NCBI RefSeq assembly: GCF_003334765.1
Contig: NZ_QOWT01000001.1
Direction: 5' to 3' (one strand)
Origin: Escherichia coli
Lineage (GTDB): Bacteria; Pseudomonadota; Gammaproteobacteria; Enterobacterales; Enterobacteriaceae
DNA length: 64,000 bases
The first letter of the stretch is position 1. Every line of letters starts with the position of its first letter. Positions 11,600 through 44,284 of the stretch are shown piece after piece. The notes below the pieces were generated by a model that did no database searches, was not told where the DNA came from, and saw nothing but the letters and a program-made list of their open reading frames with translations. Position numbers and translations under genes: made by a program.

Positions 11600-11725
11600 T
11601 TACTTGTGTTGTACCGAAGCACTCTGTTCAGGTGGCTGATAGTTGTCAATGTGACTCGCCACGCCAAGAAGAATGACTGAAACGACAAGAACGATCCAAC
11701 CTGTTAATTCAATAAGACGATTCAT
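11600..11725 (-). CDS. blr: small membrane protein Blr (41 aa)
   Basis: Last 41 codons of the 66-aa ORF 11600..11800: MNRLIELTGWIVLVVSVILLGVASHIDNYQPPEQSASVQHK, single TM helix. Confidence 0.75.
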   Translation of the reverse strand: MNRLIELTGWIVLVVSVILLGVASHIDNYQPPEQSASVQHK

Positions 11726-11967
11726 TACAGCCCACATCTCTCTTGATTGATCCATTAACTTCAGGGGGTAAATGTTACTTAGCAATAATAGCTCCAGCAA
11801 GATTTTTACTGAGGTTTTTGCGATATTTAGCTTTTGTCGTTGGAAAATTCGCTATTTTTTTGACTTAAGTTAAACAACATCCCTTATTGCTGGCAGGTTA
11901 TTAAACTGTTGAGCGTGGGTAAAGGATAGTGTCAAATAGCCATCATACTTCAATGAGAGGCAATGAC

Positions 11968-20204: not shown

Positions 20205-21485
20205 ATGTTACGTCCTGTAGAAACCCCAACCCGTGAAATCAAAAAACTCGACGGCCTGTGGGCATTCAGTCTGAATCGCGAAAACTGTGGAATTGATCAG
20301 CGTTGGTGGGAAAGCGCGTTACAAGAAAGCCGGGCAATTGCTGTGCCAGGCAGTTTTAACGATCAGTTCGCCGATGCAGATATTCGTAATTATGCGGGCA
20401 ACGTCTGGTATCAGCGCGAAGTCTTTATACCGAAAGGTTGGGCAGGCCAGCGTATCGTGCTGCGTTTCGATGCGGTCACTCATTACGGCAAAGTGTGGGT
20501 CAATAATCAGGAAGTGATGGAGCATCAGGGCGGCTATACGCCATTTGAAGCCGATGTCACGCCGTATGTTATTGCCGGGAAAAGTGTACGTATCACCGTT
20601 TGTGTGAACAACGAACTGAACTGGCAGACTATCCCGCCGGGAATGGTGATTACCGACGAAAACGGCAAGAAAAAGCAGTCTTACTTCCATGATTTCTTTA
20701 ACTATGCCGGGATCCATCGCAGCGTAATGCTCTACACCACGCCGAACACCTGGGTGGACGATATCACCGTGGTGACGCATGTCGCGCAAGACTGTAACCA
20801 CGCGTCTGTTGACTGGCAGGTGGTGGCCAATGGTGATGTCAGCGTTGAACTGCGTGATGCGGATCAACAGGTGGTTGCAACTGGACAAGGCACTAGCGGG
20901 ACTTTGCAAGTGGTGAATCCGCACCTCTGGCAACCGGGTGAAGGTTATCTCTATGAACTGTGCGTCACAGCCAAAAGCCAGACAGAGTGTGATATCTACC
21001 CGCTTCGCGTCGGCATCCGGTCAGTGGCAGTGAAGGGCGAACAGTTCCTGATTAACCACAAACCGTTCTACTTTACTGGCTTTGGTCGTCATGAAGATGC
21101 GGACTTGCGTGGCAAAGGATTCGATAACGTGCTGATGGTGCACGACCACGCATTAATGGACTGGATTGGGGCCAACTCCTACCGTACCTCGCATTACCCT
21201 TACGCTGAAGAGATGCTCGACTGGGCAGATGAACATGGCATCGTGGTGATTGATGAAACTGCTGCTGTCGGCTTTAACCTCTCTTTAGGCATTGGTTTCG
21301 AAGCGGGCAACAAGCCGAAAGAACTGTACAGCGAAGAGGCAGTCAACGGGGAAACTCAGCAAGCGCACTCTTGCTACCGCGATGACCCAACAACCACAAT
21401 CCCGCGCCCGTCTGGGCGCGGCTCGTGGGATTGCCACTTCATTGACCTTTGTCTGCCTGGCATTTCTGATAGGACCGAGCATTAA
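20205..21485 (+). pseudogene. uidA: beta-glucuronidase, 3'-truncated by an internal deletion; reading frame runs out of frame into uidB sequence
   Basis: Translation matches GH2 beta-glucuronidase from MLRPVETPTREIKKLDGLWAFSL... through ...[14 protein letters not shown] (about residue 388 of 603), then continues as unrelated [10 protein letters not shown]... to a stop at 21485. Confidence 0.85.
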
Positions 21486-31053: not shown

Positions 31054-32355
31054 TCAGGCAGAGGTAAATTGCGGGATGTTATGCCATAACGGCCAGCTAA
31101 ACGAGAAGCGGGCACCACCCAGTTCGCTGGTGTCACAATTAACCGTACCGCCCATTGCCAGTGCTATAGAGTGGACAATTGCCAGCCCCAGCCCGCAGCC
31201 GCCGGTTGAGCGATCCCGGCTGGGATCGAGGCGAACAAAAGGTTCAAAGATATGTTCGCGGTTTTCTGGGGCAATCCCTGGGCCATCATCCTCAACAATT
31301 AATGTCGCTCTATTCCCCGACAGTAGCAGGCTGGTTTCAACCGTTGAATGGCAGTACCGCAGGGCGTTATTGAGCAAATTATCCAGCACGCGCTCCATTA
31401 AGCGCATATCCAACGCCGCATAATGGCCTTGCACGAGCGTTTTTATCCGTACCGTTTTATCGGGCGTTACTGCCTGAATATCTGCCAGATGCGTTGACAG
31501 CCACAACGGCAGGTCTGGTTCGCTAAGATGAAGCTCGTTTTGTGGGCGATCGAGTCGGGCATAAGTCAGCAGCTCTTCAATTAAAGCTTCAAGTTGACTG
31601 ATATCACGATTCAACGCCTGGGATTCGGCGGCGCTCAGGTTATCGCTCATCTCCAGTCGATAACGCAGGCGCACTAACGGTGTTCGCAGTTCGTGAGCGA
31701 TACCGTCAATAAGCTGTTTTTTGCTGGCAATTAAGGCGTTGATATTGTCCGCCATCTGGTTAAATGCGACGCCAAGTCGTTCAAAGCTCGAACCCTCATC
31801 AAAGTGGATACGTTCATTGAGATGCCCATCGCCAAATCGTTGCGCCGCTGCTTCCAGTTTTAACATATCCTGCCAGTGCGGACGCATCCAGATAAACACC
31901 GGAAAGGCGAGGGAAATAGCAATAAAAGCGATCAGGGCGATATCCAGCAATCGCATCTGATGGAGATAATAAAGATAAGGAACAGGACCAACTGCCAGCA
32001 CGTAGTGGCTGCGCGGGATACGCTGCAAAAACGTGTACTGATCGTCCAGGGCGACAATTTCGCCGCCACGCAGTCGGTGCATGGAAATATCATCAAGATG
32101 GTATTTACTCAGTGGCTCGACACGCAGATCGAAAGAGAGATTTAAATCCATCTCTTTCAGAGTTTTACCCCAGTCGTGTGGGGGGATCTCACGCAATTCG
32201 CTGCGCATCAGATACAGCGAACTGTTCATCAAATCATCCAGCGACTGTTTGCCCGCGCGTTCGGCGGTAAATTTGTACACCAGCCCAACCAGCAGAGACA
32301 TCACAAGGAAGCAGACAAACAATAACAGGTAAAACTGGATAAACAGTTTTTTCAT
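31054..32355 (-). CDS. rstB: two-component sensor histidine kinase RstB
   Basis: 433 aa; two TM segments, HAMP, H-box GIAHELRTPL, HATPase motifs DDGPGI and GLGLAI. Confidence 0.92.
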   Translation of the reverse strand: MKKLFIQFYLLLFVCFLVMSLLVGLVYKFTAERAGKQSLDDLMNSSLYLMRSELREIPPHDWGKTLKEMDLNLSFDLRVEPLSKYHLDDISMHRLRGGEIVALDDQYTFLQRIPRSHYVLAVGPVPYLYYLHQMRLLDIALIAFIAISLAFPVFIWMRPHWQDMLKLEAAAQRFGDGHLNERIHFDEGSSFERLGVAFNQMADNINALIASKKQLIDGIAHELRTPLVRLRYRLEMSDNLSAAESQALNRDISQLEALIEELLTYARLDRPQNELHLSEPDLPLWLSTHLADIQAVTPDKTVRIKTLVQGHYAALDMRLMERVLDNLLNNALRYCHSTVETSLLLSGNRATLIVEDDGPGIAPENREHIFEPFVRLDPSRDRSTGGCGLGLAIVHSIALAMGGTVNCDTSELGGARFSFSWPLWHNIPQFTSA

Positions 32356-32358
32356 CGC

Positions 32359-33078
32359 TTATTCCCATGCATGAGGCGCAAAAAGATAGCCTTTGTTACG
32401 CACAGTTTTAATGCGATAAGGTTCTGCGGCGTTATCGAGCAGTTTTTTTCTTAACCGCGAAATAGCCACGTCCACGCTACGATCCAGTCCGTCATAACTG
32501 ACGCCGCGTAAATTTTTCAGCAATGCATCGCGGTCCATGATTTGCCCGGCATGGGTAGCTAATTCCCACAATAATTCGAAATCAGCTGTCGAGAGCGAGA
32601 TTTCAGTGTTAGCCAGGGTGACTACGCGGTTGATGGGATCGATGGTCAACGTGCCGAAATGCAGGGCTTTGTAGGGAGTCAGAGACGTTTCCTGAAGACC
32701 TTTGGTCAGTGTGGCTTGCTCATTCTGACGCAAATGCAAACGTAAACGCGCTAGCAAAACAGCAGGGGGCGTCGTTTTGAGAATATAGTCGCAGGCACCC
32801 ATTTCCAGTGCCAGGATGTGGTTCATATCGCTATCGAGAGAGGTTAGAAGAACAATCGGTCCAGACCACTTTGCGCGTAAATCACGACAAATGGTCATGC
32901 CGTCCTTGCCTGGTAGCATGATGTCGAGTAACACCAAATCCGGATTTTCTCGCAAAATGGTTTCTTCGGCCTGGTCGCCGCGCGGCTCTACGGTAACCTG
33001 CATATCATGTTTTGCCAGGTACGCGGCAATCAGTGAACCGACTTCCGCATCATCTTCCACAAATACGATAGTGTTCAT
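32359..33078 (-). CDS. rstA: OmpR-family response regulator RstA
   Basis: ORF track gives 259 aa; trimmed to MNTIVFVEDDAEVGSLIAAYLAKHDMQV... (239 aa); receiver Asp in LVLLDIMLPGKDG and winged-helix output domain. Confidence 0.9.
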   Translation of the reverse strand: MNTIVFVEDDAEVGSLIAAYLAKHDMQVTVEPRGDQAEETILRENPDLVLLDIMLPGKDGMTICRDLRAKWSGPIVLLTSLDSDMNHILALEMGACDYILKTTPPAVLLARLRLHLRQNEQATLTKGLQETSLTPYKALHFGTLTIDPINRVVTLANTEISLSTADFELLWELATHAGQIMDRDALLKNLRGVSYDGLDRSVDVAISRLRKKLLDNAAEPYRIKTVRNKGYLFAPHAWE

Positions 33079-41324: not shown

Positions 41325-41735
41325 GCTTGTCCCCGTTTTTTCTTCCTTTGCTAATAATAATGTCTTTTTCGCTCCGTCATCATAACGAAAATCAAACCGC
41401 TCAGGTAAAGAAGTGAAAATATTTTGAGTTAATTCTTAAGCTATGATACAAATCAGGCGTGTTCAACTACCGAGGACAATTATCATCCGCGATGACGAGA
41501 AGCAACACTGCGGATAATTGTAATATTATGGACAATTTGTTCAGGACGTTATTTTCTACATTTACCCATCTTCGTACCTCATCCACTATCTTGCTCGTAG
41601 GTGAGCAGCACTGGCGCAACGCGCTTTAGTCCTTTCTTCTGCCAAAGCTTGCGCTATGCGCGGGGCTTGACCACTTTACTTTGGTTTCGCTGAATTAAGC
41701 GAAAATTAAAATAATTCTCTTGCAGGAGAAGGACA

Positions 41736-42455: not shown

Positions 42456-43277
42456 TTATTTTTGCGACAGTTGATCCAGCTTGTCGCGAAAACCGGTAAC
42501 AGAAATGGCCCGGTTATCGGCGCGCCAGCGATCTTTCGCGGCAGGAGCCGAACTTTGCACCCCAATTAATTGCCAGCCGTCATCGGTATGCAACATCAGA
42601 GGCGAACCGCTGTCACCCGGCAAGGTATCGCACTGATGTGACATCACCGACGTTTGCGCCCAGCCAGTCACTTCACAGTTTTGATGACTGTACAACGTAT
42701 CGAGATGATCTTCAGGGTAGCCTGCCTGAGTCACTTTACGACCTGCCGCTTTTAATGCGGCGGTAAGCGCGGCTTTATCTCCCTCAAATAACGGCAACGG
42801 CGTAATGCCAGAAGGGGGATTACGTAGCACAATCAATCCGAAGTCCCACGGCGCGGCTGCGGGAGGTACAATCCAACCATCCCCATCTGCTTTTAACCGC
42901 TTTCCCAGTGTCGGATCAACGCGGCCTTCTATGTCGTGGATCTCATAGCGCCAAAGACCTTTATTTGACACAAAACGCAGCGCCACTGCTTTATCGGCTT
43001 TACCCTTTGGAGGTGTCAATAAACAGTGTCCTGCCGTTAATGCCAGATTGGGTGCAATCAGCGTCGCCGTACATAAATTGCCGCTGGCCGTTTCCAGTTG
43101 CCCAACCGCATCCCACGGTGATTGGGTCGTGTCATTCACTGGCACACGATCATCATGACCAAAAAACAGGGTGCTGACCTCATCGTTTGCCGATCTGGCA
43201 ACGTCTGGTTTATCTGCAAACACAAAAGCAGACGTCAAACTAATTGCACCCAACACTACAGCAATGGTTGTACGCAT
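42456..43277 (-). CDS. ydgD: secreted trypsin-like serine protease (S1 family)
   Basis: 273 aa, signal peptide, catalytic-triad motifs TAGHC and GDSGSPL. Confidence 0.9.
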
Positions 43278-43376
43278 ATCACACTCTGGTGGGTAATTAT
43301 GATTATTAAAAGCAAACCCTCATAAATACTATAGACGGGACGGGATGAAAGTGGGAGTAAAATCAGATAACTACAA

Positions 43377-43460
43377 TCAGGAAAGATAAAAACGGGCGGC
43401 AATCAGTGCGCATAAAATAAGGATGATCAGAATGAACTCAAAGCGATAACGGCCCACCAT
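43377..43460 (-). CDS. ydgU: small hydrophobic protein YdgU (27 aa)
   Basis: Hand-translated from the minus strand: MVGRYRFEFILIILILCALIAARFYLS; not in the supplied ORF track because of its size. Confidence 0.6.
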   Translation of the reverse strand: MVGRYRFEFILIILILCALIAARFYLS

Positions 43461-43552
43461 ACTACCCTCCGCTAAAGGCGGTGCTAAACGTTACCCGCTT
43501 AGCACCGTAATTTTCAGGCGCGAGGGGGCGCGCCAGCATTACTGTTGAAAAC

Positions 43553-43861
43553 TTACGCTGCGGGTTGTGCAGCAGGTTTTGCCGGTTGCTGATGGCTGTG
43601 TTTCTTGGCGTGTTTCTTCGCTGCCTGCGCTTTTTGTTCAGGGGCTTTCTGTTCAGCTTTCGTATTTTTATGATGCTTTTTAGCCGCCTGCGCTTTCTGG
43701 GCAGGTGCTGCTTTATGCTGTTTTTTATGATGTGTAGTTTTCGCCGGCGCTGCTTTGGTGGTCGTCGCAGTCGGAGCAGGTGTGGTCGTAGTCTCTGCAG
43801 CAAAGGCGGCAGAAGACAGACCCATAGCAGCGGCAACAACCAGAGCTAATACTTTTTTCAT
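43553..43861 (-). CDS. asr: acid shock protein Asr
   Basis: ORF track gives 111 aa; trimmed to [21 protein letters not shown]... (102 aa); signal peptide then Lys/Ala/His/Gln-rich repeats. Confidence 0.88.
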
Positions 43862-44284
43862 TGTCATACCCTCAATTTGTTTTTTCATTTAACCCCACTG
43901 CGGGGCCGTTGAAATAACTATATCCCTGGGAATGGCAGACTTCCGTGAGTGGTTGGTTTCAGCGTGTAACGATATGTACAAACGCTGAATAAATTACAGC
44001 GTTGATAATAACGTATTGTGACTTAAGGGAAATTTAGCTACCAATAATAGTAGTCTTGATCGGGTTAACTATTTTACTACTTACAAAGCAGTAGAATAAC
44101 TGCGCATCAGTAATAAATGACACACAGCAAAATGAATCCGTTTATTTGGGTACTTATAATCCTGATGACGCTAGACGCGCTGCGGGAATTGGCTGGCGCT
44201 TCGTCTATTTTAGGATGGCTATTAACGTTGGTTTGAGCTGGCAATAAGTCCGGACGGGTATTTACCGCAGTCCGGACTTATTTT

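Follow-up and report, generated by a model that had tools for sequence, protein, structure and literature searches.

Introduction

MgrB is a membrane peptide of 47 aa that is induced by PhoP and inhibits PhoQ, and it has a functional periplasmic tail with cysteines. The ydgU gene of Escherichia coli was renamed samT in a paper published in NAR in 2026 (PMC13425233). It is described as a member of the asr-ydgU(samT) operon (PMC13425233, PMC11429745), and another report likewise placed it in the same transcription unit as asr (PMC10746267). Both asr and samT were induced in an RstA-dependent manner at pH 5, and SamT was reported to exert negative feedback on RstB-RstA; samT alone complements in trans, and the feedback was abolished in rstA D52A/D52E and rstB mutants (PMC13425233). 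A strong two-hybrid interaction of SamT with RstB, comparable to that of MgrB with PhoQ, was reported together with weaker signals for SamT with PhoQ and EnvZ (PMC13425233). The reported contact between SamT and RstB rests on the bacterial two-hybrid assay, which is known to over-report for small membrane proteins (PMC7648144).

Ribosome footprints on ydgU increase at pH 4.4 with a log2FC of 9.22, the third-largest increase in the genome (PMC10746267), so that the ribosome-profiling check proposed for this gene in the preliminary description of the sequence has a positive answer in published data. Under Mg2+ starvation ydgU was among 17 induced small proteins; the induction depended on PhoQ and originated upstream of asr, and the promoter activity of the stretch directly before ydgU was negligible (PMC11429745). 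GFP-YdgU was located at the cell periphery or membrane, and neither deletion nor overexpression of ydgU gave a growth phenotype under low Mg2+ (PMC11429745). Published work is thus the source for the translation of ydgU, its membrane location and its operon, and likewise for RstB binding and feedback. On that basis the asr-ydgU operon, with ydgU as its second gene, would be induced by acid and low Mg2+; SamT would insert in the inner membrane, bind the RstB kinase and limit phosphotransfer from RstB to RstA at acid pH, a negative feedback of the MgrB type on its own inducing system.

Blr was described in 2000 as an 'intergenic' membrane protein of 41 residues that affects susceptibility to inhibitors of peptidoglycan synthesis (Wong et al. 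2000) and in 2012 as a component of the divisome (Karimova et al. 2012), both as cited in PMC12350097 and PMC7648144. Blr is also a substrate of RseP and is cleaved by it (PMC10470546). According to this literature the single-helix product would associate with the divisome and affect beta-lactam susceptibility.

Genomic context and gene identity

The window, i.e. the whole stretch of 64,000 nucleotides that was analysed, is K-12-like E. coli DNA, 99.98 % identical to a K-12 record and in reverse orientation. A 1,039-bp deletion relative to K-12 is present at 21369/21370 (uidA starts at 20205, plus strand); it takes away ~647 bp from the 3' end of uidA and ~396 bp from the 5' end of uidB. The deletion is clean, with no scar or IS and microhomology of a few bases at most, and none of 5,426 complete E. 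coli genomes covers at least 80 % of a 301-nt query across the junction. Judged from the sequence, the source strain should be beta-glucuronidase-negative, unless the window was edited. The genes of interest are the following.

43377..43460, minus strand: ydgU (= samT) CDS, 27 aa, single transmembrane helix (ORF list, RefSeq CDS, NCBIfam, conservation)
43553..43861, minus strand: asr, acid-shock periplasmic protein, first gene of the asr-ydgU(samT) operon (RefSeq mapping, translation)
42456..43277, minus strand: ydgD, trypsin-like serine peptidase, 99 nt downstream of ydgU (RefSeq mapping)
32359..33078, minus strand: rstA (annotation mapping, translation)
31054..32355, minus strand: rstB, the sensor kinase reported to bind SamT (annotation mapping, translation)
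11600..11725, minus strand: blr CDS, 41 aa, single transmembrane helix, conserved HIDNYQPP tail (RefSeq CDS, NF033231, PF24673)

The preliminary description had pointed to a hydrophobic ORF of 27 codons between ydgD and asr, and this ORF is found at exactly 43377..43460 on the minus strand. It begins with ATG and encodes MVGRYRFEFILIILILCALIAARFYLS (ORF listing with a minimum of 20 aa; re-translated). It is flanked by asr and ydgD, and its start lies 92 nt past the asr stop on the same strand, with its own ribosome-binding site (RBS). A RefSeq CDS at the exact position carries the product name 'small membrane protein YdgU' (WP_000233090), and other RefSeq records name this ORF 'stationary phase-induced protein' or 'hypothetical protein'. 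It is annotated in 15 of 15 sampled RefSeq E. coli genomes, often merely as 'hypothetical protein', and the 501 nt around it were found in 5,423 of 5,426 complete E. coli genomes. The protein scores 70.3 bits against the equivalog model NCBIfam NF052476 small_YdgU (cut-off 24), with residues 1-27 on profile positions 1-27, and 74.5 bits in an end-to-end match to NF011341 / PRK14758 (cut-off 66). Its basic N-terminus (MVGRYRFE) leads into one transmembrane helix, with a single 17-residue hydrophobic window ILIILILCALIAARFYL of Kyte-Doolittle mean 2.73. The genes rstA and rstB are intact in the window; they lie (31054..33078, minus strand) only ~11 kb from samT. Two further small ORFs, both annotated, are present on the plus strand: a 39-aa hydrophobic 'KPN_01571 family protein' (44117..44236) between ynfM and asr, on the strand opposite to asr, and the 56-aa YdgV (41459..41629) upstream of mdtJ.

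Blr is encoded from an ATG at 11725 and has the sequence MNRLIELTGWIVLVVSVILLGVASHIDNYQPPEQSASVQHK. As noted at the outset, it is hidden as the tail of a longer frame: the last 41 residues of a 66-aa, TTG-started ORF (11600..11800, minus strand; ORF listing with a minimum of 20 aa) are those of Blr, which is seen as a 66-aa ORF because of the first-start rule of mechanical ORF calling. The gene is free-standing between ydgJ and ydgT (cnu), and the 501 nt around it were found in 5,425 of 5,426 complete E. coli genomes. RefSeq places 'division septum protein Blr' (WP_001300888) at the exact position. The match to NCBIfam NF033231 small_Blr reaches 91.8 bits (cut-off 40) and covers the 66-aa ORF solely over residues 27-66; that to Pfam PF24673 Blr_divisome has an i-Evalue of 1e-25 and spans residues 1-41 of 41. 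One 17-residue hydrophobic window has a Kyte-Doolittle mean of 2.58. A homologue search returned 100 Blr homologues across the Enterobacteriaceae, with the core motifs N-R-x-x-E-L ... H-I-D-N-Y-Q-P-P. In an alignment of 30 sequences N27, R28, E31, L32, S41, L44, L45, A48, H50, I51, D52, N53, Y54, Q55 and P57 are invariant, and the order ydgJ-blr-hha-like-DUF2569 occurs in 10 of 11 fetched loci.

RefSeq, the NCBIfam and Pfam models, the hydrophobic windows and the membrane location of GFP-YdgU agree with the names YdgU and Blr and with the reading of both as small membrane proteins with a single transmembrane helix. Nothing was found that contradicts either gene call, and ydgU and blr are almost certainly genuine and already-known genes for small inner-membrane proteins. 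The view that they were missed or masked holds for a mechanical ORF list, from which a default cut-off of 60 aa would remove the 27-aa ydgU; it does not hold for the state of knowledge, since Blr has been known since 2000 and the function of YdgU/SamT since 2026. Both genes are in RefSeq and have NCBIfam or Pfam models of their own and published functions; their novelty is nil, and the value of the present analysis is confirmatory and, as discovery, small. New-looking side material is the juxtaposition of a terminator and the samT RBS, the linkage of asr, samT and ydgD, the migration of the Blr start codon with inconsistent calls outside Escherichia, and the private uidA-uidB deletion. The terminator at the samT RBS, the wide ydgD linkage and the inconsistent Blr start calls are modest leads beside the recent SamT story.

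Start codon of Blr

11726..11800, minus strand: 5' extension making the 66-aa ORF, non-coding, with in-frame ATGs at 11737 (45 aa) and 11755 (51 aa) (ORF listing, cross-genus DNA)

Database homologues of Blr are annotated at 41, 45, 51 or 53 aa, and in an alignment the Met at codon -4 seemed more conserved than that of the annotated start. The start was then compared on the raw DNA of 11 further loci and the window. Among the compared loci the annotated start is an ATG solely in E. coli, Salmonella, C. koseri and E. fergusonii. Enterobacter, Lelliottia, Leclercia, C. farmeri and two metagenomic relatives (L086-L091, L093, L094) have ATT, ATC or TTC at the aligned codon. The true E. coli protein could in principle be longer, starting at 11737 (MWAVMNRL..., 45 aa) or 11755 (51 aa), with the 41-aa annotation as a truncation. 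The ATG at codon -4 is conserved in 11 of 12 genera, and 8 of the 12 (Enterobacter, Lelliottia, Leclercia, C. farmeri and others), having ATT, ATC or TTC at the annotated start, must use either an upstream start or a non-canonical codon. The residues encoded by codons -3 to -1 remain small or hydrophobic while the third positions vary, and many database entries are 45, 51 or 53 aa long.

Against a longer protein in E. coli, the strains TUM18780 and O145:NM FWSEC0002 read ATG TGA at codons -4/-3 and E. fergusonii reads AAG TAA there, with the 41-aa frame intact in all three. As for the ATG at -10, which would give 51 aa, a frameshift separates it from Blr in C. koseri, C. farmeri and one Enterobacter lack it, and in Leclercia a TAA comes after it. 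There is zero spacing between the SD-like AGAGAG and the ATG at -4. The stops within the extension in two E. coli strains and E. fergusonii argue that the 41-aa start at 11725 holds for the window, and a longer E. coli Blr is improbable. A 45- or 51-aa Blr, as suggested by the alignment, was rejected for Escherichia on the TGA and TAA in the extension. The candidate Shine-Dalgarno (SD) sequences of blr are all weak (-4.7 kcal/mol at 11-nt spacing). In TUM18780 (L097) and O145:NM FWSEC0002 (L098) the ATG TGA (positions 214-219; window equivalent 11737..11732) forms a minimal start-stop element that precedes the blr start codon by 6 nt.

With the 41-aa start retained for the window, the start codon has, by this comparison, evidently shifted among lineages: the product has 41 aa in Escherichia and 45 aa in other genera. 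RefSeq entries of 41 aa from C. farmeri and Enterobacter (P0040, P0042), and a Leclercia entry whose start is called at the corresponding site (P0056), begin on ATC or ATT; such entries are probably mis-started, and the true product is likely to be 45 aa long.

Expression signals of ydgU

43465..43470, minus strand: SD sequence of ydgU, GGAGGG, 4 nt before the ATG (anti-SD duplex, conserved GGAG)
43479..43507, minus strand: 12-bp GC-rich hairpin CGGTGCTAAGCG-GGTAA-CGTTTAGCACCG, then CCUUUAGCG; terminator-like (fold prediction)
43517..43534, minus strand: upstream hairpin GGCGCG-CCCCCU-CGCGCC, just 3' of asr (fold prediction)

The search for a ribosome-binding site upstream of 43460, another suggested check, gave GGAGGG, whose anti-SD duplex of -10.0 kcal/mol ranks within the top 1.1 % of the 2,146 ATG contexts of the window. 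The conservation of this site and of the structures before it was followed in a survey of 80 species-level loci from ~30 genera of the Enterobacteriaceae and Erwiniaceae. The loci were fetched through the neighbouring protein YdgD, and the raw DNA was then searched for the ydgU frame. GGAG lies a few bases 5' of the start in essentially all 78 orthologous loci.

The terminator-like element including its tail spans 43471..43507 (minus strand) and abuts the ydgU RBS. In 59 of 74 distinct upstream regions, compared with 13 of 780 controls, a perfectly paired, GC-rich stem of 8 bp or more has its end 12-25 nt ahead of the start codon of ydgU. A stem with a T-rich tail was counted in 51 of the 74 distinct loci and in 2 of 780 controls; a stricter terminator criterion had undercounted because pairing between the A-tract and the U-tract absorbed Ts, and 51/74 is the recount. 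The tail of the hairpin is 5-10 nt from the SD. The stem sequences between asr and ydgU vary between clades, thus it is the structure and not the sequence that is conserved. Taken together, the region reads as an intrinsic-terminator architecture placed directly before the SD of ydgU. In Escherichia the stem is strong (11-13 bp) and the U-tract is just 3-4 U long: the hairpin is followed by CCUUUAGCG in the window, compared with the full U-tract UUUUUUUCG as in Citrobacter or Phytobacter. The shortened tract may allow more read-through, and the Escherichia hairpin may be a weak terminator or may serve to stabilise or process the mRNA. The SamT paper (PMC13425233) does not discuss the hairpin before ydgU in its main text.

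The upstream hairpin (43517..43534) is shared by the Escherichia loci and a single locus of Citrobacter amalonaticus (L010). An alternative pairing of its C-rich loop with the SD of ydgU is predicted by MFE alone (z = -2.6); sequestration of the SD by this loop was considered and dropped on account of this z value from MFE prediction alone and of the restriction of the hairpin to Escherichia and the one C. amalonaticus locus. No match to Rfam was obtained at gathering thresholds over the whole window.

Since the architecture is that of a terminator and promoter activity is negligible downstream of asr, the simplest reading is partial read-through from asr into ydgU. Transcription would start at the RstA/PhoP-dependent asr promoter and continue across the hairpin directly before the strong SD of ydgU, which would be translated independently of asr. 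Most transcripts would stop after asr and a fraction would read through, giving a low SamT:Asr ratio. We infer from the sequence that ydgU expression depends on read-through of the conserved asr terminator, with SamT sub-stoichiometric to Asr. It is very improbable that ydgU has instead a promoter of its own, independent of asr, with the hairpin as a full asr terminator. The canonical hairpin and U-tract between asr and ydgU in most genera would fit such an arrangement, as would the product name 'stationary phase-induced protein' in some RefSeq records, but a reporter immediately upstream of ydgU gave negligible activity whereas the region upstream of asr was PhoQ-dependent (PMC11429745), and probes for asr and samT were both induced RstA-dependently at pH 5 (PMC13425233). 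Moreover, the 5-10 nt between the hairpin tail and the SD leave no room for a promoter, and a sigma-70 promoter scan of 43150..44100 scored none.

Conservation of ydgU and of the asr-ydgU-ydgD block

43328..43334, minus strand: invariant CTATAGT, -10-like, with C at -13, in the ydgU-ydgD spacer (alignment)

A YdgU-like frame of 25-29 codons is present upstream of ydgD, on the same strand, in 78 of the 80 loci. It starts with ATG in 77 loci and TTG in one; in Franconibacter the start is one codon later. Between this frame and ydgD lie 79-129 nt in 75 of the 78 loci and 99 nt in the window. In 73 distinct coding sequences the entropy at codon positions 1, 2 and 3 is 0.85, 0.34 and 1.32, the third-position value being four times that of the second, and dN/dS has a median of 0.19. 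Stops occur in one alternative frame in 68 and in the other in 37 of the 73 sequences. In the protein, E8 and C17 do not vary, and R4, Y5, F7, L11, I15 and F24 hardly do. Frameshifts or stop codons in relatives, which were named in advance as evidence against the gene, are clearly not the pattern found, the frame being intact in 78 of 80 species; ydgU is therefore a real gene. The substitution pattern indicates that its frame is under purifying selection. The survey is independent of annotation, and it validated a gene of 27 codons from sequence alone, by its reading frame, start codon, SD and dN/dS. The present analysis contributes the ORFs and the RBS as well as the evidence for conservation and purifying selection.

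Two loci are exceptions. In Intestinirhabdus alba (L012, 2300-2400) the SD is kept, the ATG has become ACG, E8 is replaced by K and the helix is interrupted by R-S-D-R, with an Asr-like gene and ydgD intact beside it; this looks like a decayed copy and a natural loss of SamT. Tenebrionibacter (L064) is without both asr and ydgU.

The genes asr, ydgU and ydgD form a conserved three-gene block (42456..43861, minus strand) in the Enterobacteriaceae and Erwiniaceae, in which ydgU adjoins ydgD in 78 of 80 species. An Asr-like gene with signal peptide and repeats lies upstream of ydgU in ~72 of 80 species, as scored by inspection of ORFs and composition, tblastn being unreliable for the low-complexity Asr. 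The CTATAGT of the ydgU-ydgD spacer is identical in 22 of 22 genera aligned, and the blocks ACTCCC..TTT and TAG....CTGAT.TT on the 43335..43376 side are conserved in the same 22 of 22. CTATAGT and the spacer blocks are retained in Tenebrionibacter. Their persistence in a genome without asr and ydgU indicates that they most likely belong to ydgD. No -35 matching CTATAGT was found in the sigma-70 scan of 43150..44100, and the elements are probably a ydgD promoter or operator without a sigma-70-type -35.

Length alone does not set ydgU above chance: ORFs of such size are frequent by chance, with 18 ORFs of at least 20 aa overlapping a stretch of 900 nt around it. It is above chance because it is conserved, as a colinear frame of 25-29 codons in 78 of 80 species with dN/dS of 0.19. 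That the frame is a chance ORF, or a regulatory leader peptide that acts on ydgD or on the stability of asr mRNA through its translation and not through its product, would agree with this ORF density, with its short intergenic site between the hairpin and ydgD at a constant spacing of ~100 nt to ydgD and with the lack of a growth phenotype upon ydgU deletion under low Mg2+ (PMC11429745), but it is largely refuted, with next to no probability left, as the amino acid sequence itself is kept (E8 and C17 invariant, low dN/dS), samT alone complements in trans from another locus (PMC13425233), the tagged product was found in the membrane (PMC11429745), and the conserved CTATAGT spacer of ydgD is retained in a genome that lost asr and ydgU.

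With ydgU as a protein-coding gene, the position of ydgD in the block may be considered. The gene encodes a periplasmic trypsin-like peptidase and lies in one block with the gene of the Lys-rich periplasmic Asr. Asr is reported to mature to a species of 8 kDa, and C-terminal Asr fragments were detected by MALDI (PMC6782097); deletion of ydgD affects acid resistance (PMC13339887). No paper linking YdgD to Asr or SamT was found in the literature. It is a speculation from gene order that YdgD acts on the Lys-rich Asr, for example by producing the mature 8-kDa form or the fragments; if true, a protease would also be part of the RstB-RstA feedback loop. A joint reading, in which asr-samT-ydgD would be a functional unit with a low SamT:Asr ratio set by the terminator, a U-tract eroded specifically in Escherichia, YdgD acting on Asr and a migrated Blr start, is tentative and, taken as a whole, doubtful.

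Comparison with known systems

Compared with the published K-12 YdgU/SamT, the window contains the same gene in the same position, with the same RBS, the same operon context and rstB in the window. The difference is a conservative one at residue 21, with A21 here and T21 in K-12, so that 26 of 27 residues are identical; among the orthologues this position is A in 50 and T in 23 distinct sequences. Blr is identical to K-12 Blr (WP_001300888.1) in its 41 aa, its coordinates and the ydgJ-blr-ydgT-ydgK context, with no difference in the window.

The likeness of YdgU to MgrB, a comparison made in PMC13425233, is that of a single-helix peptide that is induced by a two-component system, binds the sensor kinase of that system and exerts negative feedback. 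A sequence relationship between the two is neither detected nor claimed. Unlike MgrB, YdgU has 1 residue after the helix, i.e. essentially no extramembrane C-terminus, and a single, invariant intramembrane cysteine (Cys17). It is also encoded behind the gene of another effector, asr, whereas MgrB is encoded alone.
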